A stretch of 40,386 bases of DNA from a virus. Lineage: Duplodnaviria; Heunggongvirae; Uroviricota; Caudoviricetes. Below, piece after piece: positions 4,101 to 33,600 of the stretch; position 1 is the first letter of the stretch; every line of letters starts with the position of its first letter. The notes beneath the pieces are model-generated. The model was given only the letters and a program-made list of their open reading frames with translations, made no database searches and was not told where the DNA came from. The stretch lies in the IMG/VR virus record IMGVR_UViG_649989946_000002, one strand, 5' to 3'. The position numbers were made by a program, and so were the translations under genes.

Positions 4101-4632
4101 TAAACGGGCGCGGCGGCAGGTTATCCACCACCACCGAGGCCAGATACTGCGAGGTGGTTTTGCCCTTAATGGTGATGTCTTTTTCCGTCACCCAGCCACC
4201 ATTACGCTGTATCTGAACCAGCAGGCGAACTTCCGACGGATTCCGGTCCCCCTTTGAGGTGGTTTCCACCAGTGCCTGCACACCGAAGGTAAAGCGCAGT
4301 CGGTCGATGTTTGCCGACGTGATGGCGCGGGTGATCGGCGTGTCGTATTTCACTTCCGTACCCAACACCGTCTCGGAGCCGGAGGATTCAAATCCCTCCG
4401 GCGGAGTCTGCTCCTGCTCACCAGCCCGGAACACCACCGTGACACCGGCGATGTTGGTATTCCCATCACTGTCCAGCACCGGCGTACTGTTCAGCAGCAC
4501 GCTTTTTAATCCATCCACCGGACCTTCAATCGGCCCTTCACTGATGGCATCAATCACACTCAGCAACTGCGTGGACTTCAGGTTGTCCTTCGCTTCGCGC
4601 GGGGTATGCCCCTTACTGCTTCCTTTACCCAT
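1153..4632 (-). CDS. J: Tail tip / host-specificity protein J (central tail fibre)
   Basis: 1159-aa ORF, N-terminus [45 protein letters not shown] typical of lambda J; gene order I-J-lom. Confidence 0.95.
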
Positions 4633-4692
4633 TCCTCACGCTCCATAAACGACAAAACCGCCCGCAGGCGGTTTCACATAAAACATTTTGCA

Positions 4693-5364: not shown

Positions 5365-6005
5365 TTGTCGGTATACCTCTCTCGTTTGCTCAGTTGTTCA
5401 GGAATATGGTGCAGCAGCTCGCCATCACCACAGTAAATGGCGGCATGATTCGGCACCGATGAACCAAAACAGCACAGCAGCACATCGCCCGGTTGTGCTG
5501 ATGACAACGGCACCTGATACAGCCCTGTGGCCTCCAGATTATCCAGATAGAGATTCTGACCGTGACGCCACCAGTCATCCTCGCGATGAAAATCCGGCAT
5601 CTCAATCCCCGCCAGATGATAAGCATCCCGGAACAGCGTGTAACAGTCCGTCACCCCGTGCTCAAAGCGCCGCCCTGTGAGATGCGGCACACAGCGGAAC
5701 TTATGAATCGTCCCCCGGCAGACCAGCCACCACGGCAAATCACTCTGCACCTGCAGCCGCCGGTCGGCCTCACTCAGCCAGGGCAGACCACCGGGGTGGC
5801 TGTGGACCAGCGCCACAATCTCACCCTGCATTTCTGCCTGCAGCCAGTCTTCCGGCGACATACGGAAATACGCCTCCGGCTCACCGGAGATATTCACGCA
5901 GGGGAAATATCTTTCCCCCTCCGGCGTGCTTACCACGAAGCCGCACGACTCCGCTGGCGCACATCGCCGGGCGTGCGCCAGAATCGCTGATTCTGTCTGT
6001 GTCAT
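5262..6005 (-). CDS. K: Tail assembly protein K (JAB/MPN plus NlpC/P60-like); true start may be the internal Met at 5861
   Basis: 247-aa ORF MTQTESAILAHARRC... with HSHPGG (JAB) motif; follows L. Confidence 0.85.
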   Translation of the reverse strand: MTQTESAILAHARRCAPAESCGFVVSTPEGERYFPCVNISGEPEAYFRMSPEDWLQAEMQGEIVALVHSHPGGLPWLSEADRRLQVQSDLPWWLVCRGTIHKFRCVPHLTGRRFEHGVTDCYTLFRDAYHLAGIEMPDFHREDDWWRHGQNLYLDNLEATGLYQVPLSSAQPGDVLLCCFGSSVPNHAAIYCGDGELLHHIPEQLSKRERYTDKWQRRTHSLWRHRAWRASAFTGICNDLAAASTFV

Positions 6006-6010
6006 GGGAT

Positions 6011-6708
6011 TTACTGCGAAAGTTTGTTAATGGAAAGGAAGCCGCCAAAGTTGCCGACGTTATTGCGGAACTTACAACCGCTCAGGCATTTGCTGCATTT
6101 ATCCTTCGTGATATCGGACGTTGGCTGGTCATATTCATCCGCGACCGCCGGACCGTGATAACCGCACTCATCGCCGCGATAGGTCCAGGTGCAGGTGTTG
6201 GCCAGCATGATACGTCCCGGAAAAACAGCGCCGTCCGTTTCCGTCGGCGTGGACAGTACAAAAGAGGCACTCACCGCGCTCAGTTCGCTGCACTGCTCAA
6301 TGCGCCAGCGGCTGATCACCTCCTGCTCCGGATCGGCGTCACTGTTTCCGTTGACGAAGTTCACCGCATCCAGAAAACGGGCGTAAACCTTACGCCGGAC
6401 CACCGTTCCGCCGACCAGACTCTGCAGATCTTCCGCCATCCCGGTGACCATACCGTACAGGTTAGAAACCGTCAGCGTGGGGCGCGTACTGGTGCCTTTG
6501 CCATTCAGTTCAAAACCACTCCCCTGAATGGGATACGGCTGATACTGTCGCCCCTGCCAGGTGACCGGCTCACCTTTTTCGTTCTGCTCATTACAGAAAA
6601 ATAACGTTCTCCACCGACCTCTGTCAGATCGATTTCCCAGAGCACCACGCTGGCAGACTGCTCCGCACGGGTGCATTCATTCAGTGTTTCCTGCCGGATA
6701 TCCTGCAT
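6011..6708 (-). pseudogene. L: Minor tail protein L, reading frame broken by 1-nt deletion in a homopolymer (forward A5 at 6597-6601)
   Basis: ORF 6505..6708 gives MQDIRQETLNECTRAEQSASVVLWEIDLTEVGGERYF then diverges; ORF 6011..6676 carries FFCNEQNEKGEPVTWQGRQ... onward; one extra T would join them into a ~232-aa L. Confidence 0.8.
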
Positions 6709-7037
6709 CAGTTCACCACCTGTTCAAACTCTGCGCTGAACTCAACACGCAGCATACTGACCCGCGACGACCATTTTGCGCAGGTCACCTTTATCTGCCG
6801 CCACTCATAAGGCGGCGTCCACAGAAAGGATTTCCAGCCCCCGTGCTCAGCCAGAAACGACTCAAGCGCCGTGGCCTCCCAACGGGGAACAGAAAGCGTC
6901 ACGCTGTACGTTTTCAGGTCGGCATTCAGCCCGGCAGGCGCTCGCTGGGAATAGCCATCACCAAAGCGCACCTTTCTTACGGAAGGGGCCGAAGCCACAT
7001 CCATACCGGGTTTCACTTTCCAGCGGAAGGTCTTCAT
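6708..7037 (-). CDS. M: Minor tail protein M
   Basis: 109-aa ORF, lambda M length and position (between H and L). Confidence 0.9.
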   Translation of the reverse strand: MKTFRWKVKPGMDVASAPSVRKVRFGDGYSQRAPAGLNADLKTYSVTLSVPRWEATALESFLAEHGGWKSFLWTPPYEWRQIKVTCAKWSSRVSMLRVEFSAEFEQVVN

Positions 7038-9613
7038 CGTCCACCTCCGGAGAACAGACCACCATCGCGCATCTGTGCCTGAATTTCATCACGGGCACCC
7101 TTGCGGGCCATGTCATACACTGCCTTCATCATCTGTGGACCTGGCAGACCATTCGTACCGTCGTTCTGAATCACCACGTGATTGTTCTGATTAAAATTAA
7201 TGCCTTCAGCCCGCCGCATCTGCGCCGGACTTCCGGCACCGCCCACATAACCACCTTCCGCATAGCCCCGCATCAGGCGGTACAGGTTGCCGACACCAAT
7301 TCGGCTGGTTGCCTCCTTCGTGAAGACAAATTCACCACGGTGAACAATCCCCGCTGGCTCATATTTGCCGCCGGTTCCCGTAAATCCTCCGGTTGCAAAA
7401 TGGAATTTCGCCGCAGCGGCCTGAATGGCTGTACCGCCTGATGCGGATGCGCCGCCACCAACAGCCCCGCCAATGGCGCTACCGATACTCCCGACAATCC
7501 CCACCATTGCCTGCTTAAGCAGAATTTCTGTCATCATGGACAGCACGGAACGGGTGAAGCTGCGCCAGTTCTGCTCACTGCCGGTCAGCATCGCCGCCAT
7601 ATTCTGCGCAATACCATCAAAGGTCTGCGTGGCTGCACTTTTAACCTGCGACATACTGTCCGTGGCGCTCTCTTCCCACTCACTCCAGCCGGACCTGAGG
7701 CCTGCCATCCAGCTCCCGCGAAGCTGGTCTTCAGCCGCCCAGGTCTTTTTCTGCTCTGACATGACGTTATTCAGCGCCAGCGAATTATCGCCATACTGTT
7801 CCTTCAGGCGCTGTTCTGTGGCTTCCCGCGCTGCCTGCCGGTCAGTAAGCCCCCGGTTTTTCGCCTCAATGGCTGCCCGTTTTGCCCGTTGTTGCTGTGC
7901 GAACTTATCCGCCTGCTGCGCCAGCGCGTTCAGGCGCTCCTGATACGTAACCTTGTCGCCAAGTGCAGCCAGCTGGCGTTTGTACTCCAGCGTCTCATCT
8001 TTATGCGCCAGCAGGGATTTCTCCTGTGCGGACAGCTGGCGACGTTGCGCCGCCTCCTCCAGTACCGCGAACTGACTCTCCGCCTTCCACAAATCCCGGC
8101 GCTGCTGGCTGATTTTCTCATTTGCTCCGGCATGCTTCTCCAGCGTCCGGAGTTCAGCCTGAAGCGTCAGCAGGGCAGCATGAGCACTGTCTTCCTGACG
8201 ATCGCCCGCAGACACTTTCACGCCGGACTGTTTCGGCTTTTTCAGCGTCGCTTCATAATCCTTTTTCGCCGCCGCCATCAGCGTGTTGTAATCTGCCTGC
8301 AGGATTTTCCCGTCTTTCAGTGCCTTGTTCAGTTCTTCCTGACGGGCAGTATATTTCTCCAGCGGCGTCTGCAGGCGTTCGTAAGCCTTCTGCGCCTCTT
8401 CGGTATATTTCAGCCGTGATGCCTCAGACTCGGCCCAGTCATTTGCTGCCATCTCTCTGGCCTTTTCAAGATCGGCCTGCAACGTGGCGGCTGAAAGCCC
8501 AAGTTGCGCATTCGCTCTGTCCTCCCATGCTCCCCGGAGATTGGCAAGAAATGCTGAGGTTTTACCGCGCCGGTGGCTTCGGCTCTGATACCACTGCCAT
8601 TTTTTGTCCGCCTCATCAAAAGCCTTTTCTGCTTTCTCCAGCATTCCCTGGGCAGTGTCCGGGCGACCAATATCCAGCACCGAATCCCACATGGATTTGA
8701 ATGCCCGTGCTGTCCTGTCTGCCCAGGTCTCCAGCGTGCCCATGTTCTCTTTCAGGCGGCGGGTCTGGTCATCAAACCCTTTCGTTGCGGCCTCGTTCGC
8801 CGCCTGCAATGCCCCGGCTTCATCTCCGGAACGCTGCAACTGAGCAACATACGCAATCTGCTCCGCCGTCACGTTATGGAACTGACGTGCCATCGCTGTC
8901 AGTCCCGACGTCGGGTCTGTGGTCAGCTTCCCGAAGGCTTCAGCGACCTTGTCCACCTCCACGCCGGATGCAGAGGAGAAACGCGCCACACTCTGGCTGA
9001 TCGCCTCAAACTGCTCACCACCACGCACACCGGCATTCACCAGCGCCGTCAGTGACTCGCTGGTCTGGTTAAACGTCAGCCCTGCCGCCTGCCCGGCTCT
9101 GGACAGGGCCAGAATACGATCTGCCGTCAGTCCCGCCTGATTGCCGGAAAGGACCAGCGTTTTGTTGAAATCGGACAGGGTTGAGTTGCCCTGATACCAG
9201 GCATACGCCAGCGCACCGGTCGCCACCGCCAGCGAGGTGGCCCCCACCATCGGCAGGGTGATCGCACCGGCAAGCCCCCTGAACATGGGGATCATCCCGC
9301 CGAAGGAGTCCTTAACCTGACCACCCTGTTGCAGCAGGATCAGCCACGGACTTTGCCCGCCTGCAAGCTGCGTGGCCACGTCGGTGAACTGTGCAGGCAG
9401 CATACGCATGGCGGCTTTATACTGCCCGACGGAAATCCCCGCTTTCTGTGCAGCCAGCGCCTGTCGGCTCAGCGACTGTTCAACGACTGCCGCTGTTTTT
9501 TTCGCATCAGTTTCCGTACCGGAAAAATGACGCCTGACTCTGGCCATCTGCTCGTCAAATCTGGCCGCATCCAGACTTAAATCAACGACCAGATCGCCTA
9601 CCGGTTCAGCCAT
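7034..9613 (-). CDS. H: Tail tape-measure protein H
   Basis: 859-aa ORF, MAEPVGDLVVDLSLDAARFDEQMARVRRHFSG..., long coiled-coil middle, C-terminal ...RDGGLFSGGGR as in lambda H. Confidence 0.95.
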   Translation of the reverse strand: MAEPVGDLVVDLSLDAARFDEQMARVRRHFSGTETDAKKTAAVVEQSLSRQALAAQKAGISVGQYKAAMRMLPAQFTDVATQLAGGQSPWLILLQQGGQVKDSFGGMIPMFRGLAGAITLPMVGATSLAVATGALAYAWYQGNSTLSDFNKTLVLSGNQAGLTADRILALSRAGQAAGLTFNQTSESLTALVNAGVRGGEQFEAISQSVARFSSASGVEVDKVAEAFGKLTTDPTSGLTAMARQFHNVTAEQIAYVAQLQRSGDEAGALQAANEAATKGFDDQTRRLKENMGTLETWADRTARAFKSMWDSVLDIGRPDTAQGMLEKAEKAFDEADKKWQWYQSRSHRRGKTSAFLANLRGAWEDRANAQLGLSAATLQADLEKAREMAANDWAESEASRLKYTEEAQKAYERLQTPLEKYTARQEELNKALKDGKILQADYNTLMAAAKKDYEATLKKPKQSGVKVSAGDRQEDSAHAALLTLQAELRTLEKHAGANEKISQQRRDLWKAESQFAVLEEAAQRRQLSAQEKSLLAHKDETLEYKRQLAALGDKVTYQERLNALAQQADKFAQQQRAKRAAIEAKNRGLTDRQAAREATEQRLKEQYGDNSLALNNVMSEQKKTWAAEDQLRGSWMAGLRSGWSEWEESATDSMSQVKSAATQTFDGIAQNMAAMLTGSEQNWRSFTRSVLSMMTEILLKQAMVGIVGSIGSAIGGAVGGGASASGGTAIQAAAAKFHFATGGFTGTGGKYEPAGIVHRGEFVFTKEATSRIGVGNLYRLMRGYAEGGYVGGAGSPAQMRRAEGINFNQNNHVVIQNDGTNGLPGPQMMKAVYDMARKGARDEIQAQMRDGGLFSGGGR

Positions 9614-10040
9614 ACCGGACTCCTCCTGCGATCCCTTCTGATACTGTCATCAGCATTACGTCATCCTCCGTCATGTCCGCCACATCCGGGGAAGCGGGGA
9701 TAACTTCATTCCCGTCCGGGCCAAAACGAACGCCTCCGGCAAGCCCTGCCGCTTTCTGCATCAGCACATCATCTTCAGTCTCTTCGTCAGCCTCGCGCCG
9801 GTTCAGCAGACTGAAATCCAGCGGATGCATATCCGGATCGCTGAAAAACAGGCTGAGCACGGTGTACGTCAGCCCGGAAAAGTGCATATCCAGCAGAACA
9901 TCATGAAAATAATGGGTACTGTAAAAGCGGTGCCAGTCGGCATACTCCGTGGATGACATCCCGGCAAGCATGGCACGCCAGTCGGGTCGCCCCATCTCGC
10001 GCGCCAGTTTCAGGGCAAAACTCAGCTCACCGTCGAACAC
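9606..10040 (-). CDS. T: Tail assembly chaperone T segment (expressed as G-T fusion by programmed -1 frameshift)
   Basis: 144-aa ORF in -1 frame relative to G, beginning FDGELSFALKLA directly after the GGGAAAG slippery heptamer. Confidence 0.85.
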   Translation of the reverse strand: MFDGELSFALKLAREMGRPDWRAMLAGMSSTEYADWHRFYSTHYFHDVLLDMHFSGLTYTVLSLFFSDPDMHPLDFSLLNRREADEETEDDVLMQKAAGLAGGVRFGPDGNEVIPASPDVADMTEDDVMLMTVSEGIAGGVRYG

Positions 10041-10444
10041 TTTCCCGCAGAAACAGGCTCTGCAGGCCCGGCGTCCTCTGCCTGTTCAGGGGCATCATTC
10101 ACCACAAACTCATACATACCGGACAGCCGGTACACCACGTTTTCAGCATGAGAAATTGCCTCTGTAGGCCAGGTGGTAAGCACTTCCTGCTCAATCTGTT
10201 TAACGGCTTCATTCATGGAAGGCATCTGCGTCTTCTGCGGATGGTTATGCCACAGGGACATCGCCACCACACAAGCACCGGTTCTGATGGCGTCTTCCAC
10301 AGTAAACTTCCGGTTGCTGTCTGACTCCGCCTGTTCTGCCTGCCGTTTCATCAGGGCGAGATGCTCAATACGCTGCAGGGCTGACAGTTCAGAAAGCGTG
10401 ACGGTCACACCGTTATGTTCAAATGATTCGGTTTTCAGGAACAT
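10022..10444 (-). CDS. G: Tail assembly chaperone G
   Basis: 140-aa ORF MFLKTESFEHNGVTVTLSELSALQRIEHLALMKRQAEQ... ends ...AGKCSTVS; matches lambda G as recalled. Confidence 0.9.
   Translation of the reverse strand: MFLKTESFEHNGVTVTLSELSALQRIEHLALMKRQAEQAESDSNRKFTVEDAIRTGACVVAMSLWHNHPQKTQMPSMNEAVKQIEQEVLTTWPTEAISHAENVVYRLSGMYEFVVNDAPEQAEDAGPAEPVSAGKCSTVS
10040..10046 (-). promoter_or_regulatory. Programmed -1 ribosomal frameshift slippery site G GGA AAG (G to G-T)
   Basis: Minus-strand heptamer GGGAAAG across codons A-G-K near the 3' end of G; the T frame opens immediately after. Confidence 0.8.
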
Positions 10445-10459
10445 CGCTGACTCTCCGGA

Positions 10460-11200
10460 TTAACTGGCGGTGACGTTGATTTCTGCAACCGCAGCAAGTT
10501 CACCATTACCGGATACGACCGGAATGTTGACCTTGCCTGCAGCAACACCTTTCACGGTGATGGTCATACCACTGACCGACACGGTGGCTTTTGTTTTATC
10601 CGCTGACACCGCACGGAAGCTCTTGTCGGTTGCGCCTTCCGGCTGGAATGCCACGGTCAGCGTGGTGCTCTGCCCTTTCACCACCGAGGTGCTGGCAGGC
10701 GTCACGGTCATGCCGGTTGCTGCTGTGACCGTGCTGCGATCTTCTGCCATCGACGGACGGCCCACATTGGTGACCTTCACCGTGCGGGTGATCACTTCCT
10801 TCGCCGTCACCGCCTTACCGATACTGCTGACCCAGCCGCGGAACACATCGACCGTGCCATTCGGGAAGCGGATTTTATAGGCTCGGGTATCCCCTTCATT
10901 AAACCACGCCAGCAGCGCCTGCTGCCCCTGCTCTCCGGGCATCCACGCCAGCGTGAAGCTGGTATCTCCGGCAGATTTCTGCCCCTGCCCGGTCGCAGTC
11001 CAGTCCGCATCTTCATCATCGAGATAGCTGTCGTCATAGGACTCAGCGGTCAGTTCGCCGGGCGTCAGGTCTTTAACTTTAGCCAGACGCGACCAGTCAA
11101 CGTCTGAAAGCGGGTTCGCATAAGGGTCACCGTTCCCCTTATAAACCCACAGTGTGGTCCCGGCCCCTTTCACCGGCATTACTGGATTTGGTACAGGCAT
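10460..11200 (-). CDS. V: Major tail tube protein V (with C-terminal Ig-like domain)
   Basis: ORF 10460..11230; likely start [22 protein letters not shown] at 11200 (246 aa). Confidence 0.9.
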
Positions 11201-11207
11201 AGCGTCC

Positions 11208-11603
11208 TCACATTTCATAGGTAATGACATAAGTCAGATCGGCTGAACTCCACAGGCCCGCATCATCGTCGCGCCGGTAGTCATAGCCGCTGGCCACCAT
11301 ACTGGTGATCAAATCTGACAGTGCCGGGATATCGCTCATCACCGGATAAATCCGGGACTCCATCCACGAATCCAGCTCTGAATCCGGCACCTGAGCAGGC
11401 AGGAAAACTTCAATATGCAGCTCCGCCTGCCAGGTATCGCTGTCCAGCTCTTCGCCCGTGTATTCAGCGCCGGTGAGATAAACGGCAATTGCCGGAAAAT
11501 CCGCCTCATCAAAAACAGCGGGGCGACCATCAAAAAGCGTCGCCCCGGTGTCATGCTTCTCCAGTGCATCCAGTACGGCTGCACGGAGTTCAGTATGTTT
11601 CAT
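11208..11603 (-). CDS. U: Tail terminator protein U
   Basis: 131-aa ORF, lambda U length and position between Z and V. Confidence 0.9.
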
Positions 11604-12177
11604 CGCTTTATTACCATTCTCAGTTGATGCTGCAGCGCATAGCCCAGCTCTTTCGGAAGACGTTCACGCCGTATCCGTTCAATATTCTGTTTAAACGCCG
11701 TGGTCAGCGGCACCGCCATCGGGATTTTCACCACATCAATGGGGTAACGGTTTTTCCCGGCCACACGCTGCATGACATGCCACCGGCCATTTTTCAGTTG
11801 CTGAATAAACGCGCCGGGAATACGACGGTTTCCCACCACAAGCACGCTGCCGCCACCTTTCAGGGCTGAACGCTGCCCCTTTTTACGACGTCTGCGGCGG
11901 GAAAGGACAACCCGCGCGTTACCCAGCCTGATTACGGGCAAATCCCCCGGTTAACCCTGATTCTGGCCTGCGGATTTTTGACCGTGGCCCTTTTCAGCCT
12001 GGCCCTTTCCTTTACCAGTTTCCGGCGTACCTTTGTCTCACGGGCAACCTGTGCCACCGACTGCGATATCGCGGATGAAGCAACGCGGTTAATGGCCATT
12101 GCGGCGGCACCGGGCACCGCCGTTCTGCTGATACGGCTGAGGTTTTCAACGGCCTGCTCAAGACCTTTTATGGCCAT
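11600..12177 (-). pseudogene. Z: Tail completion protein Z, frame broken by 1-nt indel at a G5 run (forward C5 at 11944-11948)
   Basis: ORF 11932..12177 gives MAIKGLEQAVENLSRIS...ARIRVNRGICP*, ORF 11600..11941 gives (L)PVIRLGNARVVLSRRRRRKKGQ...; together 192 aa as in lambda Z. Confidence 0.8.
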
Positions 12178-12188
12178 ACATCCCCCTT

Positions 12189-12542
12189 TCAGCGGCGACG
12201 GTTAACGGCAGGCGGTACGCCCCGCCCAAGCCAGAGATGACAGCTTCCGCCATCATCCGGCGAAATCCGGTCTATCCAGAAGTTTTCCTCACCGATGGTC
12301 AGCGTGTCGCCGCGCCGCAGCTGCCGCACATCATCAGTCTGGACAAACAGGGACGGGCTGGAGCCTTCAACGCGCACGCCCTGTCCGGCATAGCTGATAT
12401 TTTCAGGGTCATCAAAAACACCACGTATCACAGCACCGGACTGCTCACCGGATGTCATGGTGGCTGACGTTCCCATGTACCCGCGTATCGTTTCATCGGC
12501 GCAGGCAATGGCAGCATCGAACAGGTTATCGAAATCAGCCAC
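12189..12542 (-). CDS. FII: Head-tail connector protein FII
   Basis: 117-aa ORF, lambda FII length and position. Confidence 0.9.
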   Translation of the reverse strand: MADFDNLFDAAIACADETIRGYMGTSATMTSGEQSGAVIRGVFDDPENISYAGQGVRVEGSSPSLFVQTDDVRQLRRGDTLTIGEENFWIDRISPDDGGSCHLWLGRGVPPAVNRRR

Positions 12543-12553
12543 AGCGCCTCCCG

Positions 12554-12949
12554 TTATTGCATTCTGGCCAGGCCGCGCTCTGTCATTTCAGCTGCCACAC
12601 CGGCAGAGACACGGAACGCCGTTCCCGGCAGCACAAATGCCACAGCCTCATCCCGCGTGGCGTGAAGTGCATCAGTATGCAGCGTCACCAGTGCCACAAC
12701 CGTGACCAGATCAGCCGTATCAGTCACGGTATCCGGCTGCGCTGATACAACCTCATTTTCATGTCCGGTCAGCACATTTTCCGGGCTGAGAGGGGTATCC
12801 TGACCGGCAGTGTCGCCCGTGTCATCAAGCTCTTCTTCCAGCTCTGCCACACGGAGCGCCAGTTCTTCTTTCGTCCCCGTCAGGCTGATATCACGGTTCA
12901 GTTGTTCACCCAGCGAGCGGAGACGGGCAATCAGTTCATCTTTCGTCAT
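12554..12949 (-). CDS. FI: DNA-packaging accessory protein FI
   Basis: ORF 12554..12988; start taken at MTKDELIARLRSLGEQLNRD (132 aa) as in lambda FI. Confidence 0.85.
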   Translation of the reverse strand: MTKDELIARLRSLGEQLNRDISLTGTKEELALRVAELEEELDDTGDTAGQDTPLSPENVLTGHENEVVSAQPDTVTDTADLVTVVALVTLHTDALHATRDEAVAFVLPGTAFRVSAGVAAEMTERGLARMQ

Positions 12950-12990
12950 GGACTCCTCCACAGAGAAACAATGGCCCCGAAGGGCCATGA

Positions 12991-14016
12991 TTACGCCAGT
13001 TGAACGGACACGAACTCATCAGGATCAGCCAGCAGCATCAGCGGTGCTGACTGAATCATGGTGAACTCTCGCGCCGGATCGCCGGATGTCTTCCAGTTTT
13101 TCGGATAACGGGGAGACGCATTAATACCCTCACTCAATGCATCCGCATCCTGAATACAGCCATAGGTGCGCAGACCGCGTGCATGAGTGTTACCCAGCAC
13201 CATCGTGTCGTCCGGCAGGAAGTTCTTTTTGACGCCGTTTTCCACGTACTGTCCGGAATACACGACGATGGCCACATCGCCATACATCCCCTTATAGGAC
13301 ACCGCTTTACCCAGGTCTTTCACCGCTGTCTCCAGCTCGGAATGAGAGCCGCGACGGGTATCCAGCTTCTCCTTGACGGCTTTGAAGGAACGGAACAGCG
13401 CCCAGCCTTTCGGATCAAACACGATGATATTCACCACGCCGCTGGCGTTCAGCGCGTAGGCTTCGATATCGTCGGTCGGGTCATACGTGGACTTGTCACG
13501 CTTGCTCCACTCCGTGCCGCCGGACTGCGTGATGTTGTTCGCCGCACTGCGGCCCATATCCACCTCAACCGGATCGAAGGCTTCACCGGTCATGGTGTAT
13601 TTGCCCTTGAGCACGGCAGAAACTGCCTGCATCTCTTCGACCTGAGCAATGGCCAGCTCTTCGTCACGCATGTTCTGCAGGATGATGCGACGGCGGCGGT
13701 AAGCCGGGTCCGCCAGATTCTGCGGATCTTCATCCGGCAGGCGATGCAGGGTCATCTGCGGATTCACTTCATGCTTGGGTTTGACATATCCCGGCGTAAA
13801 TTCAGAGGTGGAGCCGCCACGGGAACGGATAACCTCACCGGAAACAATCGGCGAAACGTACAGCGCCATGTTTACCAGTCCCGGAATTTGTGAGAGATAG
13901 ACTTTCTCCGTAGTGAAGGGATAGCTCTCACGGAAAAAGAGACGCAGAAACAGCGGATCAAACTTAAATTTCTGCTCATTTGCCGCCAGCAGCTGGGCGG
14001 TTGTGTACATCGACAT
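12991..14016 (-). CDS. E: Major capsid protein E
   Basis: ORF contains MSMYTTAQLLAANEQKFKFDPLFLRLFFRESYPF...; 341 aa from the MSMYT start. Confidence 0.95.
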   Translation of the reverse strand: MSMYTTAQLLAANEQKFKFDPLFLRLFFRESYPFTTEKVYLSQIPGLVNMALYVSPIVSGEVIRSRGGSTSEFTPGYVKPKHEVNPQMTLHRLPDEDPQNLADPAYRRRRIILQNMRDEELAIAQVEEMQAVSAVLKGKYTMTGEAFDPVEVDMGRSAANNITQSGGTEWSKRDKSTYDPTDDIEAYALNASGVVNIIVFDPKGWALFRSFKAVKEKLDTRRGSHSELETAVKDLGKAVSYKGMYGDVAIVVYSGQYVENGVKKNFLPDDTMVLGNTHARGLRTYGCIQDADALSEGINASPRYPKNWKTSGDPAREFTMIQSAPLMLLADPDEFVSVQLA

Positions 14017-14071
14017 AAAAAAATCCCGTAAAAAAAGCCGCACAGGCGGCCTTTAGTGATGAAGGGTAAAG

Positions 14072-14404
14072 TTAAACGATGCTGATTGCCGTTCCGGCAA
14101 ACGCGGTCCGTTTTTTCGTCTCGTCGCTGGCAGCCTCCGGCCAGAGCACATCCTCATAACGGAACGTGCCGGACTTGTAGAACGTCAGCGTGGTGCTGGT
14201 CTGGTCAGCATCAACCGCCAGAATGCCAACGGCAGCACCGTCGGTGGTGCCATCCCACGCAACCAGCTTACGGGTGGAGGTATCCAGCATCAGCGGGGTC
14301 ATTGCAGGCGCTTTCGCACTCAATCCGCCGGGCGCGGTTGCCGTATGTGCCGGGTCACTGTTGCCCAGCGGCTGGTAATGGGTAAAGGTTTCTTTGCTCG
14401 TCAT
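14072..14404 (-). CDS. D: Head decoration protein D
   Basis: [39 protein letters not shown]..., 110 aa from MTSKE. Confidence 0.9.
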
Positions 14405-14413
14405 AAACATCCC

Positions 14414-15019
14414 TTACACTGGTGTGTTCAGCAAATCGTTAACGGCATCAGATGCCGGGTTACCTGCAGCCAGCGGTGCCGGTGCCCCCTGCATCAGACG
14501 ATCCAGCGCAGTGTCACTGCGCGCCTGTGCACTCTGTGGTGCAGCTGCCAGAATGCGGCGGGCCGTTTCCACGGTCATACCGGGGGTTTCGGCCAGCACG
14601 CGGGCCTGTTCTTCGCGTCCGTGAGCCTCCTCACAGTTGAGGATCCCCATAATGCGGCTGTTTTCTGCCGCAACCGCAGCGGTGATCTGCGCGTTCACGT
14701 CCGGCTGCGCCGCGCTGGCGTTTTCGCCCTCCGTCGCTGGCACCACGTCAGTAACGTCAGTCTGCGAAGCAGTGGCTGAAACAGTTGTTGATTGAGTCTC
14801 TTTGGTCATTCGCCCTCCTGAGAGACGGGATTTACGCGCATCCAGTGCATCACGCATGACGGTGATCGCATCGGTGCTGTTAACAAGTTCATCAGCCAGT
14901 CCGGCATCAATGGCCTCCTGACCGCTGTACACTGCAGCCTCGGTATCCAGCACAGCCTGCACAGACAGGCCGGTATATGCCGACACCTTCTGTGCAAACA
15001 TCTGGCGGGTTGCGTCCAT
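14414..15019 (-). CDS. Nu3: Scaffolding protein Nu3 (in-frame C-terminal 201 codons of C)
   Basis: Internal Met MDATRQMFAQ... 201 codons before the C stop, as in lambda where nu3 shares the 3' end of C. Confidence 0.65.
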   Translation of the reverse strand: MDATRQMFAQKVSAYTGLSVQAVLDTEAAVYSGQEAIDAGLADELVNSTDAITVMRDALDARKSRLSGGRMTKETQSTTVSATASQTDVTDVVPATEGENASAAQPDVNAQITAAVAAENSRIMGILNCEEAHGREEQARVLAETPGMTVETARRILAAAPQSAQARSDTALDRLMQGAPAPLAAGNPASDAVNDLLNTPV

Positions 15020-15713
15020 CCGGGACTGCAGTGTCTCCCGGACGTCATCCGGAAGATGGCTGTAGGGATTGCCATCCACCTTATGGCTGCCGCTGTAAAT
15101 CAGCGTGATTTCCACACCCTGTTTCTCCAGGGCAGCACCGTAATTACTGTGAGCCATCATGACGCCGATGGAGCCTGTCCGGGCGGTCTGCGTGACCAGA
15201 CGCCGGGAGGCGGCACTGGCAAGCAGCTGACCTGCACTGCAGTTCATGTCGTTGGCCAGCGCCCATACCGGTTTTATGTCACGCACACGGGCGATGATGT
15301 CAGCGCAGTCAAATGCCCCCGCCACCATTCCGCCTGGCGTGTCCATATCGAGCAGAATGCCGTCCACCATCGGGTCGCTGGCAGCCTGTTGCAGACGGGC
15401 GATAATGCCGTTGTAACCGGTCATCCCCGAGTACGGCTGCAGCGCCCGCGTCCGGCTGACCAGCGTGCCGGACACCGGCAGCACGGCGATGCCGTTCATG
15501 ACCTGATAACTGCGGGCCTGTCGTGGTCCGTCATCATCACCGGATAACGCCAGCGTCGCGAGTGCCTCCTGGGCAGTCAGGCTGTCGCCGGACACCGCAT
15601 CCGTCAGGCGGCTGATCCCAAGCTGGCCTGCAAGCGCACAAAAGAAAACCCGCGCATAGGCGGGTTCAAGCATCAGCGGCTCATTAAAAGCCATACTGGC
15701 AATATGCGGGAGA

Positions 15714-15733
<20 letters not shown>
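14414..15733 (-). CDS. C: Head maturation protease / scaffold C (GTG start)
   Basis: 439 aa from GTG at 15733 (VTAELRNLPHIASMAFNEPLMLEPAYARVFF...), matching lambda C as recalled. Confidence 0.9.
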
Positions 15734-19414
<3,681 letters not shown>

Positions 19415-19440
<26 letters not shown>

Positions 19441-19960
19441 TCAGCAACCCCGGTATCAGTTCATCCAGCGCGGCTGCTTTGTTCATGGCTTTGATGATAT
19501 CCCGTTTCAGGAAATCAACATGTCGGTTTTCCAGTTCCGGAAAACGCCGCTGCACCGACAGGGGGATCCCGTCGAGAATACTGGCAATTTCACCTGCGAT
19601 CCGCGACAGCACGAAAGTACAGAATGCGGTTTCCACCACTTCAGTGGAGTCTCTGGCATTTTTCAGCTCCTGTGCGTCGGCCTGCGCACGCGTAAGTCGA
19701 TGGCGTTCGTACTCAATAGTCCCTGGCTGGAGATCTGTCTCGCTGGCCTGCCGCAGTTCTTCAACTTCCCGGCGCAGCTTTTCGTTCTCAATTTCAGCAT
19801 CCCTTTCGGCATACCATCTTATAACGGCGGCAGAGTCATAAAGCACCTCATTACCCTTGCCACCGCCTCGCAGAACGGGCATTCCCTGTTCCTGCCAGTT
19901 CTGAATGGTACGGATACTCGCACCGAAAATGTCAGCCAGCTGCTTTTTGTTGACTTCCAT
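19415..19960 (-). CDS. Nu1: Terminase small subunit Nu1
   Basis: 181-aa ORF MEVNKKQLADIFGASIRTIQNWQEQGMPVLRGGGKGNEVLYDSAAVI... (winged HTH). Confidence 0.95.
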
Positions 19961-20137
19961 TGTTCATTCCACGGCCAAAAACAGAGAAAGGAAACGACAG
20001 AGGCCCAAAAGCTCGTTTTCAGCACCTGTCGTTTCCTTTCTTTTCAGGGGGTATTTTAAATAAAAACATTAAGTTACGACGAAGAAGAACGGAAATGCCT
20101 TAAACCGGAAAATTTTCATAAATAGCGAAAACCCGCG

Positions 20138-20149
20138 AGGTCGCCGCCC
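20138..20149. other. cos site: 12-nt cohesive-end sequence (cosN core); cosB lies between here and Nu1
   Basis: Forward AGGTCGCCGCCC is the reverse complement of the lambda cohesive end GGGCGGCGACCT; flanked by CGCGGGTTTTCGCTATTTATGAAAATTTTCCGGTTTAAGGC in reverse complement. Confidence 0.85.
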
Positions 20150-20348
20150 CGTAACCTGTCGGATCGCCGGAAAGGACCCGCAAAATGATAATAATTATCA
20201 TCTACATGTCACAACGTGCATCTACGCCATCAAACCACGTCAAATAATCAATTATGACGCAGGTATCGTATTAATTGATCTGCATCAACTTAACGTAAAA
20301 ACAACTTCAGACAATACAAATCAGCGACACTGAATACAGGGCAACCTC

Positions 20349-20543
20349 ATGTCAACGAAGAACAGAACCCGCAGAACAACAACCCGCAACATCCGCTTTC
20401 CTAACCAAATGATTGAACAAATTAACATCGCTCTTGATCAAAAAGGGTCCGGGAATTTCTCAGCCTGGGTCATTGAAGCCTGCCGCCGGAGACTAACGTC
20501 AGAAAAGAGAGCATATACATCAATCCAGAGTGATGATGGATGA
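20349..20543 (+). CDS. YnfO/YlcI-like small protein (DUF3950 family)
   Basis: 64-aa ORF MSTKNRTRRTTTRNIRFPNQMIEQINIALDQKGSGNFSAWVIEACRRRL...; position just inside cos as in lambda/Qin right ends. Confidence 0.75.
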   Translation: MSTKNRTRRTTTRNIRFPNQMIEQINIALDQKGSGNFSAWVIEACRRRLTSEKRAYTSIQSDDG

Positions 20544-20928
20544 ACATCCCGGTTTCTTGACCTTCCCTCCCTCCCCGCACAGAACTGGCGAGCGTGAGGG
20601 ACCAATATGTGAGCCATAAATGCCTTATCTTCAGAAATGTAGTTGGTATCCGAATAGAACGATATTGTAAATTCACCTAAATACGAGGCATTGCTGTAGT
20701 TGAATTGCAGTACTGTATTAGCCTGACAGTGACAGAATACGATATTGACTCTGTCACTTGTGAAATGGTCAGAATGGTTAGCAGTTATGGTGATCAGTCA
20801 ACCACCAGGGAATAATCCTTCGTATTCTTATCGTGCTTTACTAACGCGGCCTCAATTGCCCTGTGATCTTACCCAGCAATAGTGGACACGCGGCTAAGTG
20901 AGTAAACTCTCAGTCAGAGGTGACTCAC

Positions 20929-21228
20929 ATGACAAAAACAGTATCAACCAGTAAAAAACCCCGTAAACAGCATTCGCCTGAATTTCGCAGTGAAGCCCTG
21001 AAGCTTGCTGAACGCATCGGTGTTACTGCCGCAGCCCGTGAACTCAGCCTGTATGAATCACAACTCTACAACTGGCGCAGTAAACAGCAAAATCAGCAGA
21101 CGTCTTCTGAACGTGAACTGGAGATGTCTACCGAGATTGCACGTCTCAAACGCCAGCTGGCAGAACGGGATGAAGAGCTGGCTATCCTCCAAAAGGCCGC
21201 GACATACTTCGCGAAGCGCCTGAAATGA
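20929..21228 (+). CDS. insE: IS3 OrfA (InsE-like, HTH/leucine zipper)
   Basis: [54 protein letters not shown]... Confidence 0.9.
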
Positions 21229-22091
21229 AGTATGTCTTTATTGAAAAACATCAGGCTGAGTTCAGCATCAAAGCAATGTGCCGCGTGCTCCGGGTGGCCC
21301 GCAGCGGCTGGTATACGTGGTGTCAGCGGCGGACAAGGATAAGCACGCGTCAGCAGTTCCGCCAACACTGCGACAGCGTTGTCCTCGCGGCTTTTACCCG
21401 GTCAAAACAGCGTTACGGTGCCCCACGCCTGACGGATGAACTGCGTGCTCAGGGTTACCCCTTTAACGTAAAAACCGTGGCGGCAAGCCTGCGCCGTCAG
21501 GGACTGAGGGCAAAGGCCTCCCGGAAGTTCAGCCCGGTCAGCTACCGCGCACACGGCCTGCCTGTGTCAGAAAATCTGTTGGAGCAGGATTTTTACGCCA
21601 GTGGCCCGAACCAGAAGTGGGCAGGAGACATCACGTACTTACGTACAGATGAAGGCTGGCTGTATCTGGCAGTGGTCATTGACCTGTGGTCACGTGCCGT
21701 TATTGGCTGGTCAATGTCGCCACGCATGACGGCGCAACTGGCCTGCGATGCCCTGCAGATGGCGCTGTGGCGGCGTAAGAGGCCCCGGAACGTTATCGTT
21801 CACACGGACCGTGGAGGCCAGTACTGTTCAGCAGATTATCAGGCGCAACTGAAGCGGCATAATCTGCGTGGAAGTATGAGCGCAAAAGGTTGCTGCTACG
21901 ATAATGCCTGCGTGGAAAGCTTCTTTCATTCGCTGAAAGTGGAATGTATCCATGGAGAACACTTTATCAGCCGGGAAATAATGCGGGCAACGGTGTTTAA
22001 TTATATCGAATGTGATTACAATCGGTGGCGGCGGCACAGTTGGTGTGGCGGCCTCAGTCCGGAACAATTTGAAAACAAGAACCTCGCTTAG
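21225..22091 (+). CDS. insF: IS3 OrfB (InsF-like DDE transposase; made as OrfAB by -1 frameshift)
   Basis: 288-aa ORF overlapping orfA in the -1 frame; DDE integrase-core motifs (WAGDITYL..., HTDRGGQY..., [17 protein letters not shown]). Confidence 0.9.
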
Positions 22092-22556
22092 GCCTGTGTC
22101 CATATTACGTGGGTAGGATCACTGAATGCTTCCAGAGATACTTGATGTTCTATACATGCAATTACAACATCCGGGTAACCCATCGAAATGGTGCTATTAA
22201 GCATAGTTTTTACACGAACCTGCTCCTGGGAGGGGGCATCAATGTATTGATCTTTATGCATTTTGTCGCTCCATTCGTTTGCTCTTCACTTGCGGCTAAA
22301 AATATAACGTCAAATCACTCAGCATGAAAGAGTGAAAGTTTCAGCGCGTTTCCCTTACATAATCTGTCGTTTGTATTCTCTTCAGGCATACCGGAAAGAC
22401 TAGGTATTGTCACACAACCAATACCATCGACAATCGAGATTTATATCTATTCGGTAATGTTTAAATATAACAAAACCCCGTAAAAACGAGGTTTATGGGT
22501 AATTTGTATTGTTGAATAGCATCTGATGAGAAATTGATGCTAATACTATAAACATA

Positions 22557-22733
22557 CTAGATTAAATCAATCTTGATATCATAGCTTTCAAGACCAGTCA
22601 TTTTTTCCCGTGCAGTAAACTGGATACTGGTAACTTCTTTCCCGGTCTTTTTCTTAAGCTCAATGATTTTTTTTGTTATATATTCAGAAATATCTGCTTC
22701 TGTTTTTGTTTTTAACTCTTCAATGTTCATCAT
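22557..22733 (-). CDS. gnsB: GnsB-like small protein (GnsA/GnsB family)
   Basis: MMNIEELKTKTEADISEYITKKIIELKKKTGKEVTSIQFTAREKMTGLESYDIKIDLI with AGAGGA RBS. Confidence 0.75.
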   Translation of the reverse strand: MMNIEELKTKTEADISEYITKKIIELKKKTGKEVTSIQFTAREKMTGLESYDIKIDLI

Positions 22734-22902
22734 TTCCTCTTTTAGTCTGTTATGACTTTCTTGGTACACAGTAGTGTCAATTATATGGAGCAAACGTATA
22801 AAAGATAAGATGAAACATCGCAATAATCAACATACGACGGTCTAAATTTCACACAAACAGATAAAGATGATTATCATTTATTATCAATGCATTAGAATCA
22901 AA

Positions 22903-23058
22903 TCAATTCAAGAGTCTCATTGCTGCTTCCAGAATTTCTTCTGAAGTTACATGTCGATCCGCTGCTACATAAATGACTTTATGATCTCCGGTCAGAGATG
23001 GAAACCCTGCAGCCATTACAGTGAGGTGTGTTGTTTCGCCATTTGGGTATTCACGCAT
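22903..23058 (-). CDS. ynfN: YnfN-like small protein (51 aa)
   Basis: MREYPNGETTHLTVMAAGFPSLTGDHKVIYVAADRHVTSEEILEAAMRLLN; position between gnsB and cspI as in Qin; start inferred. Confidence 0.5.
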   Translation of the reverse strand: MREYPNGETTHLTVMAAGFPSLTGDHKVIYVAADRHVTSEEILEAAMRLLN

Positions 23059-23173
23059 GATGGTGTTAACTCCGGTCATCACTGGCACTACCATTGCTGG
23101 TTCAGAGTTAAAAAAACTATTATTTTTTCATATGTTACCGTAATATGTGAGTATCCATCGACTAGACACTAAG

Positions 23174-23196
23174 CAAAAAAGCTCCCGAAGGAGCCT
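23174..23196 (-). terminator. Rho-independent terminator downstream of cspI
   Basis: Minus strand GGCTCC-TTCG-GGAGC followed by TTTTTTGC. Confidence 0.5.
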
Positions 23197-23401
23197 TCAT
23201 TTTCACTTTCTTAAATCTAACGACAGATGGCTAACATTTAAGTATTGTGAAATATTATCAAATGTAATCATCATTGATTTACAAAAGATACATTTTGCCC
23301 CGAAAGGATTTCTGTCAGAAACATCAAAAGATGATGTTCTATACTGAGAACCATGGCAACACGGGCATCTAAAGTGAATATGGTTTGTAATATTTTCTAC
23401 C

Positions 23402-23614
23402 TCAAAGTGCCACTACATGAACAGCTGCAGGGCCTTTAGGTCCGTTCTCAATACCAAATTCGACTTCCTGATTCTCAGTTAACGTTTTGAAATCGTTGCT
23501 CTGAATAGCTGAGAAATGCACAAACACATCTTTGCTACCATCTTTCGGCGTGATGAAACCAAAACCTTTTTCAGGGTTAAACCATTTCACTAAACCAGTC
23601 ATTTTGTTAGACAT
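23402..23614 (-). CDS. cspI: Cold-shock protein, CspI-like
   Basis: 70-aa [41 protein letters not shown]... with RNP1/RNP2 motifs. Confidence 0.9.
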
Positions 23615-23977
23615 TATTATTACCTTTTGAAGAAGTTAGCCCTTGGGCAGAATGGTCCGAAAAAAAATATCAGAGAGAAAAACCAACAAGGAAATCTCAA
23701 GAGGTACAAATAATAAAATTATAACAATGACTGCTTCAGATAATTTTGTAACAAACCAGAACACCATTAACGCATGATTAACCAACCATAGCAAGGATTA
23801 CTTTTGTAAAGAAAAACACACGAATGAAACAATAGCTTTATTTATTAATAAAACGTGTCATTCTGTCTAATGACCTTTTATCTTACCCTTAAGATTTCAA
23901 GGATTTTGACTCATGGAAGAGTCCTTTTTATTTAAATTTCACATTCAGCGCTAAAAATAATCCGATTTAATATTAAT

Positions 23978-24470
<493 letters not shown>

Positions 24471-27605: not shown

Positions 27606-28277
27606 TCAGGTCTGGTACCAGCTTCTGGACATGACGTCGTGCCAGCGTGGTCGGTAAACGACTAAACCGGTTTCCATTACAACGCCCACAAATCTTATAT
27701 ACCGGTACGCCATGAAACCGGGTTCTTTTTCATCCAGAACAATCCCTTTACCCTTACACCCTCTGCACGCTGTGCTGGCTTCGCCCTTACCATGGCAATG
27801 CTGACATAGTTCCTTCACCCATTCTTCCTTGATTACAGATTCCCCGCGTCTGTAGTGTTTCACCACTTCGCGCAATACATTATAAAATCCCGTACCTGAA
27901 CAATGCTCACAGCGAGCCTTACTTGCCGCAGACCTGGAGTAATCAGCAAAGGCAAAACTCACGAGGTAAGGAATAATCTGTAACCGGATTTCTTCACTCA
28001 ATTTGTTCAATGTCGGGTTATCCAGTGCCATCGCGTAATTTAGCAGGCCTTCAATCGCAAACTGAGGGTCCTGAACACCAACTTTTGCCAGAAATAAGGC
28101 CAACCCAAGTGGTGCTTTCGACTGCACCATCCCCTGCGCTGCCATTACATCCGTAATTGTTAAACAACCGGTGCCTGTCGCTGGAGCGTCATCGCTCAAT
28201 TTTGGAGATTTTGGGGAGTAATATTTTGGTAAGGCTTCAAGGTTCATGCTCGTTCTCCACTTACGCCAGTACGCCAA
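27606..28277 (-). CDS. Late-gene antiterminator Q (QuuQ/phage-82-type, zinc-binding)
   Basis: 223-aa ORF with CxxC...CxxC cluster (CEHCSGTG...CQHCHGKGEASTACRGCKGKG); position between nin-like genes and lysis cassette. Confidence 0.75.
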   Translation of the reverse strand: MAYWRKWRTSMNLEALPKYYSPKSPKLSDDAPATGTGCLTITDVMAAQGMVQSKAPLGLALFLAKVGVQDPQFAIEGLLNYAMALDNPTLNKLSEEIRLQIIPYLVSFAFADYSRSAASKARCEHCSGTGFYNVLREVVKHYRRGESVIKEEWVKELCQHCHGKGEASTACRGCKGKGIVLDEKEPGFMAYRYIRFVGVVMETGLVVYRPRWHDVMSRSWYQT

Positions 28278-31939: not shown

Positions 31940-33600
31940 CACTTTTGTGGGGACAGTCCACAAAACTGCCAACTTCCGCTTCTTGCTCTTAGCGGACATT
32001 AGCATAGGCTATTTACCATAACGCCTCATTACGCGCACCGCCCAGACTGACTCAGCGCGTTTCTGGCATATCCCCGGTAAAACAAGTAACAAACCACCCG
32101 AAAATGAACACCAGAAACGCGACTTAAGAATCTACCCTATGAATGGATATGCACTCAACCGAATCGATCTTGGTTTCAATCTATTTTATCGGGATCAGGC
32201 TTCTTTTTAGGTAACTTCGGGGGCTTAACTTGCTGATGACTTTGCGTTCGGCGCGTAAGCCAGGGATGGTCAGCTTTAGATTTAACATAGTATTTTGAGC
32301 GTAAATCAATACGGGCATTATCCACTCGTTCATGGACACTCTTTTCATCATCCAGTGGTATAGGCTCCGGGCCATCAACATACTTTTCCCAGCCCAGCGC
32401 TTTCCCGTCATACAGAACGTTAATTTCACCGTCAAAGTTCTCACATACAGTAACAACCGAATGCCTAAGTCGATATCCCCGGCCCTCACTGCGTACCTGA
32501 AACGCACTGCTTTTGTACTGGAAAGTGAGATTTTTAGACAGAACGCGCTTCGCCTGTAGGCTGAAGATATAACCCAGTTCCTCTTCAGAATGGTGCACAT
32601 CAAGATGAGCATTATCAGTAGTACGAGGCGACGTAGCGAACCGGTTGTTATAGGCTTCAATAAAGGTCGGCAACCATGCATTTGCTGTTTCAATATCACT
32701 GATATTCTGAAGCCGCATTTCTTTGACCAGCCTGTCCTGTAGTGTCTGATTGGCGCGCTCTACCCGCCCTTTTGCCTGCGGGCTGTTGGCATGGATTGGC
32801 TCGATGCCCTGTGTCTTTATCGCACGAGTGAACTGGGTCAGCTCACCTTCCCGCTCTGGGTTATTTACCCTGAATATACTGTGTCTATCAGAGTAGAGAG
32901 CGAGCGGTACGCCATGATCATTAAGGTAACCCCGGAGGGTTTCCATGTAAGCCCGGGTTGTTTCAGCAGGCACAAAACGCAACGCCATCAACGCACTGGT
33001 GGCATCATCAATGAAAACGATCAGTGTACATCTGGGGCCTCGATTTTCAAACCAGTCATGAGGTGAGCCATCAATCTGGATCAGTTCACCGTAAGATGGT
33101 CGTCGCATGCGGCGTTGATATATACGGGCAATTTTACGACGGCGTTCACGCCATAACCCCTCTTCTATCATCCACTTTCTGAGAGTTTCAACGGATAAAG
33201 ATAAACCGTGTATCTCGCGCAATTTTTCGCACGCAAACGTAGGTCCAAAATCAGCGTAACGGCCTTTGAGGAGTGAAATTACTGTTGCTCTGAATTCAGT
33301 AGAAAAGGAATTATTAGGATGCTTTCCACGTCGGTGGGAAACCAGACCAGAAGGCCCTTCATTTCTATACCGTTGCACCAGACGTTTAACCTGCCGAATA
33401 GAAATGCCAATGCGTGCCGCAGCTTGTTCCTGAGTAATATGTCGATTAATTGACTCCTGAATAATCTGAAGTCGGTGGAGTTCCTTATGACTCATCGTAA
33501 CAGTCTCTTTGATCATGAAAAATCCCCCAGAGAATTGTCTGGGGACATTTTAGAATGGTTCAAAGGGGACATTACAGCTTGGTGTTAACAATAGCCTGCT
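31940..33600 (-). mobile_element. Second IS element (rve/DDE transposase, IS481- or ISNCY-like); ends not resolved
   Basis: Single large transposase ORF flanked by non-coding DNA; GGGGACA-containing motifs near both flanks; no terminal inverted repeats could be confirmed by eye. Confidence 0.35.
32176..33516 (-). CDS. DDE-type (integrase-core, rve) transposase with N-terminal HTH
   Basis: 446-aa ORF: HTH (ITQEQAAARIGISIRQVKRLVQRY), DDE core (LIQIDGSPHDW..., LIVFIDDATS..., ALYSDRHSIF..., RVERANQTLQDRLVKEMR). Confidence 0.85.
   Translation of the reverse strand: MIKETVTMSHKELHRLQIIQESINRHITQEQAAARIGISIRQVKRLVQRYRNEGPSGLVSHRRGKHPNNSFSTEFRATVISLLKGRYADFGPTFACEKLREIHGLSLSVETLRKWMIEEGLWRERRRKIARIYQRRMRRPSYGELIQIDGSPHDWFENRGPRCTLIVFIDDATSALMALRFVPAETTRAYMETLRGYLNDHGVPLALYSDRHSIFRVNNPEREGELTQFTRAIKTQGIEPIHANSPQAKGRVERANQTLQDRLVKEMRLQNISDIETANAWLPTFIEAYNNRFATSPRTTDNAHLDVHHSEEELGYIFSLQAKRVLSKNLTFQYKSSAFQVRSEGRGYRLRHSVVTVCENFDGEINVLYDGKALGWEKYVDGPEPIPLDDEKSVHERVDNARIDLRSKYYVKSKADHPWLTRRTQSHQQVKPPKLPKKKPDPDKID

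Follow-up and report, generated by a model that had tools for sequence, protein, structure and literature searches.

An IS3 insertion in a ybcW/lambda p79-family gene of a probable Qin-type Escherichia coli prophage

The window, by which we mean the whole 40,386-nucleotide stretch of viral DNA analysed here (IMG/VR record IMGVR_UViG_649989946_000002), is occupied by a full-length lambdoid prophage lying on the minus strand. Its gene order runs from J and lom through the tail and head genes, the terminase genes, nohA and cosN to ynfO and an ORF that is split by an insertion sequence, the subject of this report. Beyond the split ORF come gnsB, ynfN, cspI, rzpQ, rrrQ, a holin gene, cspB/cspF and Q (27606-28277), followed, in the same arrangement as in the Qin-type prophage of STEC276, by ydfU, a complete ISNCY-type transposase ORF (32176-33516), a DUF977 gene, a ydaT-family gene and dicA; an exonuclease ORF is also present. 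Qin-type prophages are characterised by the genes dicA, relBE, hokD, rem, ydfU, Q/ydfT, cspB/F, essD, rrrQ, rzpQ, cspI, gnsB and nohA and by a chromosomal location between rspB and ydfJ. Positions 7000-35000 of the window are collinear with the STEC276 prophage at 99.6-99.9% identity. The STEC276 prophage is situated between rspB and ydfJ and is about 50 kb long, including an IS21; the window stops short of the attachment sites, and its prophage, without that IS21, would be about 48 kb in length and within the packaging range of a lambda-like phage. The features around the insertion, in window coordinates, are listed below.

19415-19960, minus strand: nohA, a Nu1-type small terminase gene and the first packaging gene past the insertion (from the ORF list)
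20138-20149, minus strand: cosN core (GGGCGGCGACCT), an exact single match
20349-20543, plus strand: intact ylcI/ynfO-family gene (DUF3950), convergent with the split ORF (Pfam DUF3950, E 5e-20; NCBIfam YlcI_YnfO_N)
20794-20863, minus strand: 3' part of the split ORF, starting with the third base of codon 46 and running through codons 47-68 to the stop codon
20861-20863: left copy of the target-site duplication, CTG, read from the sequence
20864-22121, plus strand: complete IS3, 1258 bp, with 0 mismatches in 1258 to K-12 IS3C
20864-20903, plus strand: left terminal inverted repeat of IS3 (IRL), beginning 5'-TGATC
20929-21228, plus strand: IS3 orfA, insE-type, 99 aa, with a helix-turn-helix (ORF list; Pfam HTH_Tnp_1, E 5e-10)
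21191-21195, plus strand: A-AAA-G motif (AAAAG; context CCAAAAGG from 21189) in the orfA/orfB overlap region
21225-22091, plus strand: IS3 orfB, insF-type, 288 aa, with the DDE/rve catalytic domain (Pfam rve, E 5e-28)
22082-22121, plus strand: right terminal inverted repeat of IS3 (IRR), finishing GATCA-3'
22122-22124: right copy of the target-site duplication, CTG, read from the sequence
22125-22261, minus strand: 5' part of the split ORF, comprising codons 1-45 plus bases 1 and 2 of codon 46
22473-22494, minus strand: terminator-like hairpin between gnsB and the split ORF, from a consensus scan only

The ylcI/ynfO-family gene is also annotated in a collinear locus (L002), and nohA is annotated as 'DNA-packaging protein' in that locus and in a second one (L003).

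The sequence-only reading of this DNA had described a 1258 bp IS3 with intact orfA and orfB and terminal repeats, and the description is confirmed. The element is base-for-base equal to the curated reference, the feature 'insertion sequence:IS3C' of E. coli K-12 MG1655. It starts with TGATCTTACCC and finishes with GGGTAGGATCA, giving the 5'-TG...CA-3' ends expected for IS3 (longer reads of the two edges are TGATCTTACCCAGC from 20864 and ACGTGGGTAGGATCA up to 22121), so that the ends of the element agree with IS3 termini, a check that the same reading had proposed. The inverted repeats are imperfect, with 28 ungapped matches in 40 between IRL and the reverse complement of the right end. The coordinates of orfA within the element equal those of K-12 insE3; the orfB product matches Pfam rve and rve_2 as well as NCBIfam transpos_IS3 (E 3e-101, 339 bits against a cutoff of 160), and the two genes overlap by ATGA. 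We take the AAAAG at 21191 to be the -1 programmed frameshift site from which the OrfAB transposase is predicted to be made, and RefSeq labels identical IS3 copies 'programmed frameshift', with a joined CDS of 1163 nt. As judged from its sequence this is a canonical and apparently functional copy, which shares with the IS3 elements of K-12 (for example IS3C in DLP12, insE/insF; IS3 family, IS3 group) its sequence, ends, gene overlap, AAAAG motif and 3 bp target duplication, and differs from IS3C in location alone, lying inside a ybcW-family gene of a Qin-type prophage. Of 5426 complete E. coli genomes, 3817 gave full-length IS3 copies by megablast, and copies 100% identical to the window element occur in thousands of E. 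coli genomes. The element is one of low activity in mutation-accumulation lines of K-12, where it contributed 10 of 758 new insertions (PMC5009759).

The range 20861-22124 given in the sequence-only reading corresponds to IS3 together with both copies of CTG, and the perfect 3 bp duplication claimed there holds both in the sequence and by comparison with the empty site. Identity of 3 bp flanks is by itself expected by chance once in 64 cases; what is decisive is the match to the empty site. Deletion of IS3 and one CTG in silico yielded a reconstructed query of 1200 bp, which is present at full length and with 100% identity in four E. coli records (Ecol_AZ147 and three of ST540), while some 20 further records match it at 99.9%. 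The empty site in Ecol_AZ147 and ST540 contains a single CTG. Comparison with an uninterrupted Qin-type locus, which had been suggested as a check, shows flanks that are collinear to the base. The Ecol_AZ147 and ST540 prophages have the same order of nohA, ynfO, ORF, gnsB, ynfN, cspI and rzpQ, with no IS3; that of Ecol_AZ147 breaks off beyond the terminase genes, while in the window prophage the full head and tail block is retained.

These observations also bear on how the element arrived. Homologous recombination between IS3 copies, an IS-mediated rearrangement or an assembly artefact might each place an IS3 here, and there are genomes (REL606, PD7, DAX4, WCHEC050613 and 2018-05-5CC) in which IS3 in this neighbourhood is accompanied by an adjacent deletion or foreign flank, with no duplication. 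In the window, however, both flanks follow the empty site base for base and the 3 bp duplication is perfect, the signature of simple insertion, and we consider an origin of these kinds to be extremely unlikely. Taken together, the perfect duplication, the collinearity of the flanks and their 100% identity to empty sites argue instead for a simple and recent transposition.

Removal of the element rejoins 22261-22125 to 20863-20794 and restores a minus-strand ORF of 68 codons and a stop (207 nt), with GGAG 7 nt 5' of its ATG at 22261. The earlier claim that excision restores a minus-strand ORF with a good RBS is thus borne out, although its length was put at 67 codons and is in fact 68. In Ecol_AZ147 the uninterrupted ORF is annotated as a hypothetical protein of 68 aa (WP_020239410.1, 207 nt), situated between gnsB and a convergent ylcI/ynfO-family gene, after which come nohA and the large terminase gene. 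The insertion point lies in codons 46/47, coding strand TT[C AG]G, and the present-day gene reads into IS3 to give a 57-aa ORF (22088-22261), of which the product consists of 46 native residues and 11 that are specified at the junction and inside IS3.

The database search that had been proposed for the reconstructed product places it in the YbcW/lambda p79 family, with a match to phrog_657 ('unknown function') at E 2e-47 over positions 1-68 of 68. The restored protein is identical at 54 of 68 positions (79%) to YbcW of K-12 (b0559, in DLP12) and has 79.4% identity by tblastn to lambdap79 of lambda (NP_597782, 47738-47944); the YbcW and lambdap79 proteins are identical to each other. All three are 68 aa long, lie on the late-operon strand and are the last late-strand ORF before cos, and with the uninterrupted Qin-type prophages they substantiate the view of this ORF as a conserved one of the right end. 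In DLP12 ybcW stands immediately upstream of ylcI/ynfO, cos and the nohA-type gene nohD, the same place as that of the window ORF; in lambda, no annotated late-strand gene lies between lambdap79 and cos, and no ylcI/ynfO gene is annotated in the stretch that was read. In the window gnsB adjoins the ORF on the lysis side, a place taken by ybcV/lambdap78 (DUF1398) in DLP12 and lambda. The window protein is also set apart from YbcW and lambdap79 by a divergent N-terminal segment of 16 residues, within which most of the replacements fall, and the window gene by its interruption after codon 46.

It might be argued that the split ORF is no real gene, and that the insertion is merely intergenic with nothing functional lost. 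The restored ORF has no match in Pfam, NCBIfam or, by profile search, among PDB sequences. When 1.84 billion representatives were scanned exhaustively with HMMER, 113 hits came back, all of them close relatives, with no remote families. P0002, a sequence 96% identical to the restored ORF, stood in for it in the representative search. An AlphaFold model built from eight sequences has three helices and a mean pLDDT of 78, and a Foldseek comparison of it with PDB and BFVD returned nothing at E < 3. The family was found only in enterobacterial lambdoid phages. Many relatives from the HMMER and word-indexed searches seem more divergent and sit on ENA contigs of about 3.5 kb; we rejected these as true diversity, for they look like error-ridden lambda sequence. 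Against the view that the ORF is spurious, it is conserved at full length and in the same position in lambda, DLP12 and Qin-type prophages, and its comparison with ybcW and lambdap79, at about 88% nucleotide identity, gives a pN/pS of about 0.45. Length is approximately kept in two divergent homologues (63 and 68 aa), which are 40-56% identical to the first sequence of the alignment and retain the core YPDVV..ACI..VS.E.F.AIEA; the GGAG ribosome-binding site is in place, and the model is confident in its core (pLDDT 88-93 for residues 11-50). In K-12, moreover, ybcW is induced by Hha (PMC2408971) and its expression depends on PdhR (PMC7660256); what the literature search yielded on ybcW was confined to expression of this kind. 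We therefore regard a merely intergenic insertion as very improbable; on the basis of the conserved position, the pN/pS and the retention of length and core in the divergent homologues, the split ORF is taken to be a real gene under moderate constraint.

The gene is nevertheless best treated as a non-essential accessory gene. In K-12-like variants of Qin the interval is occupied by ydfO and no such ORF is annotated, most of the ORF is deleted in WCHEC050613, and two independent IS3 insertions have knocked it out, all of which fits with dispensability.

We are thus very nearly certain that a canonical IS3 inserted simply into the ybcW/lambda p79 homologue of a Qin-type prophage, with duplication of CTG and reduction of the gene product to 57 aa. 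Members of the IS3 family transpose by a copy-out/paste-in route via a circular intermediate, and this is presumably the route that was taken here. The element would have transposed by simple insertion into codons 46/47 of the 68-codon gene, the last late-strand gene before cos, and staggered cleavage of the target with subsequent gap repair would account for the 3 bp duplication of CTG. The most likely consequence is the loss of a non-essential accessory protein. The event is a textbook one and the element is fully known. The insertion may be seen as a further stage in the decay or domestication of a lambdoid prophage that is still of full length, and it supplies a natural knockout of lambda p79/YbcW, an uncharacterised gene.

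Queries of 240 bp spanning the left and right junctions found no identical junction in 5426 complete E. coli genomes, and yielded two-piece matches with larger spans that reflect IS3 nearby at other sites. The exact 57-aa truncated product is absent from a large gene catalogue, and an exact 35-mer of the junction is absent from genome_contigs (one genome per species) and from JGI metagenome contigs. As the flanks have kept 100% identity to empty sites and the junction was seen in no other searched record, the insertion looks recent and strain-specific, and a unique junction of this kind would serve as a clean, datable strain marker.

The sequence-only reading had also raised the possibility that the insertion is polar on packaging-gene expression. 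IS3 lies on the presumed path of the late transcript, from Q by way of the lysis genes and morons to the split ORF, cos and nohA. The element is in antisense orientation to that transcript, some 715 bp upstream of cosN on the late-transcript strand, and it lengthens the interval from the lysis/moron block to cos by 1261 bp. A polar effect on the packaging genes is therefore geometrically plausible. A simple terminator scan, however, detected no terminator-like site on the minus (antisense) strand within IS3, and the late transcript must already cross the terminator-like hairpin that follows gnsB. RNA polymerase modified by Q resists terminators. From these considerations polarity during induction is probably weak under Q antitermination, and a mild effect at most on late transcription into the packaging genes is the most likely outcome.

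IS3 is found repeatedly in this part of related prophages. When the IS3 copies of 22 related loci were placed on window coordinates, at least 17 different junction configurations were seen at 20671-24349 in other E. coli genomes, and seven junction positions fall within 193 bp (20671, 20688, 20738, 20785, 20797, 20816 and 20861, the last being that of the window). The configurations read in detail are as follows.

20688-20690: simple insertion with duplication of GCA, in STEC276, in the opposite orientation
20797-20799: simple insertion with duplication of GTC
20816-20818: simple insertion with duplication of TCC, inside the same ybcW-family ORF and 45 bp from the CTG site
22473-22475: simple insertion with duplication of AAA
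between ydfO and gnsB in a K-12-like variant: simple insertion with duplication of GAC
23049-23051: simple insertion with duplication of ATT, in ynfN
23861-23863: simple insertion with duplication of TTC
24132-24134: simple insertion with duplication of GTT, in rzpQ
24347-24349: simple insertion with duplication of ATT, in rzpQ
2456 joined to 20671: IS3 with an adjacent deletion or foreign flank, in the REL606/B lineage
right junction at 20738: IS3 with an adjacent deletion or foreign flank, in PD7
20785 joined to 22185: IS3-flanked deletion, in WCHEC050613
22406 joined to 22993: IS3 with an adjacent deletion or foreign flank, in DAX4

The insertions in STEC276, EC21Z-063, AST19 and REL606/B, and that giving the fusion protein P0004, share with the window the same IS3, the 3 bp duplication rule and the neighbourhood, but differ from it in position, and several have adjacent deletions.

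Such recurrence, with at least 17 junction configurations, seven junction positions within 193 bp and a second insertion in the same ORF, raises the question of whether the right end from ynfO to rzpQ is a preferred target of IS3, or whether insertions there are selected, for example because they cripple late or packaging functions or remove ybcW. A control query, in which IS3 was placed artificially between 600 bp flanks from ydfU-rem, gave at least eight spans in 10 fully covered genomes, the control region being present in 2686 genomes; the query for the real locus gave at least 12 distinct spans in 23 genomes, and the block of the ORF and gnsB is present in about 966. By this rough normalisation the right end is at most weakly enriched over the control, by a few fold, in counts uncorrected for phylogeny. 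The recurrence of IS3 around the control indicates that the element is common across these prophages in general, while the clustering and the apparent orientation bias are partly artefactual, as the search joined only same-strand pieces near the query; on these two grounds we rejected a firm IS3 hot spot or orientation bias. The duplicated triplets (GCA, GTC, TCC, CTG, AAA, GAC, ATT, TTC and GTT) differ and have no apparent common motif, cryptic prophages are expected to tolerate IS insertions, and a literature search on IS3 together with the Qin prophage found nothing. We conclude that preferential targeting of, or selection for insertions in, the ynfO-rzpQ interval is unlikely, and that tolerance of insertions in dispensable prophage DNA is the economical explanation for the recurrence of IS3.

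The more specific proposal that the lysis-to-cos right end, and the ybcW-family gene especially, is a preferred landing zone for IS3 we hold to be decidedly unlikely. Were it true, the cause would be sought in local features of the DNA or in selection for disabling late or packaging functions, and IS3, otherwise an element of low activity, would emerge as one that repeatedly drives prophage domestication. That IS3 recurs in these prophages is the one broader point raised by the window, with a possible bearing on the target choice of IS3 or on prophage inactivation. The ybcW-family gene has been hit independently by IS3 at least two times, in addition to the one IS3-flanked deletion, and the fusion protein that results from the TCC insertion (P0004) has 59 member sequences and carries the same IS-encoded tail as that of the window.

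IS3 has entered the right end of Qin-type prophages of other E. coli on many independent occasions, at positions equivalent to window 20671-24349 (mapped from the related loci L001, L003-L008, L010, L012 and L015-L024). These hits include at least nine simple insertions, each with its own 3-bp duplication, and at least six copies with adjacent deletions or foreign flanks; seven IS3 junction positions fall within 193 bp, beside or inside the ybcW-family ORF. Since IS3 is also recurrent in the ydfU-rem flanks, which serve as a control region, no more than a weak enrichment of the element at the right end is suggested.

The 68-codon ybcW-family ORF has itself been struck by a second, independent IS3, with the target-site duplication TCC at the equivalent of window 20816-20818 (loci L021-L024) and in the same orientation as the window copy. 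The protein that arises from the TCC insertion (P0004) is a 72-aa fusion that ends with the same IS-encoded tail of ten residues as the window product, and its cluster has 59 member sequences, two genomes of ~4.6 Mb among them. The closest relative of the window prophage, that of STEC276 (L003; 99.6-99.9% identity), carries IS3 at L003 13693-14950, 173 bp from the window's insertion site, with a GCA duplication at window 20688-90 and in the opposite orientation. The STEC276 prophage further contains an IS21, placed between rrrQ and ydfR (L003 18110-20079), that is absent from the window; each strain has gained its own IS load, in prophages that are otherwise near-identical. The IS3C copy of K-12 MG1655 (L029, 566777-568034) differs in that it sits in renD of DLP12 and is flanked by ATC and ACC, with no perfect 3-bp duplication, whereas the window copy has one.

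IS3 is associated with a large deletion in E. coli B and elsewhere. In REL606 the element (L001 6001-7258) joins window 2456 to 20671, and in this strain, in the B derivative B-DolR and in ATCC 8739 it fuses the J tail gene directly to DNA that borders the ybcW-family ORF on its left, with loss of ~18 kb that comprised the head and terminase genes, cos and ynfO. This join is also present in other genomes that have the REL606 match.

The cos-gnsB interval of Qin-type prophages occurs as two alternative cassettes (window 20349-20543 versus loci L010-L013). The window type has a ynfO variant of 195 nt together with the ybcW-family ORF, whereas the K-12 type has a ynfO of 234 nt and ydfO (DUF1398); the right end of the prophage has thus undergone mosaic replacement. 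In metagenome protein databases the YbcW family looks diverse, but a large part of this diversity derives from ENA contigs of ~3.5 kb (hits P0020-P0120 and P0128-P0227), which contain lambda-like sequence that is frameshifted and full of errors. These hits are probably sequencing-control lambda DNA rather than real YbcW homologues, and only P0143 and P0185 look like genuine divergent members.

Two further features of the window are:

22473-22494, minus strand: terminator-like hairpin between gnsB and the split ORF, immediately downstream of the former
32176-33516, minus strand: complete transposase ORF of 446 aa with helix-turn-helix domains and rve_3

In strain AST19, IS3 landed exactly at the edge of this hairpin (duplication AAA, 22473-75). 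The transposase marks a second IS-type element of the prophage, which appears to be full length here; the ORF corresponds to a RefSeq-annotated truncated ISNCY/IS1202-like ISEsa1 pseudogene of related prophages.
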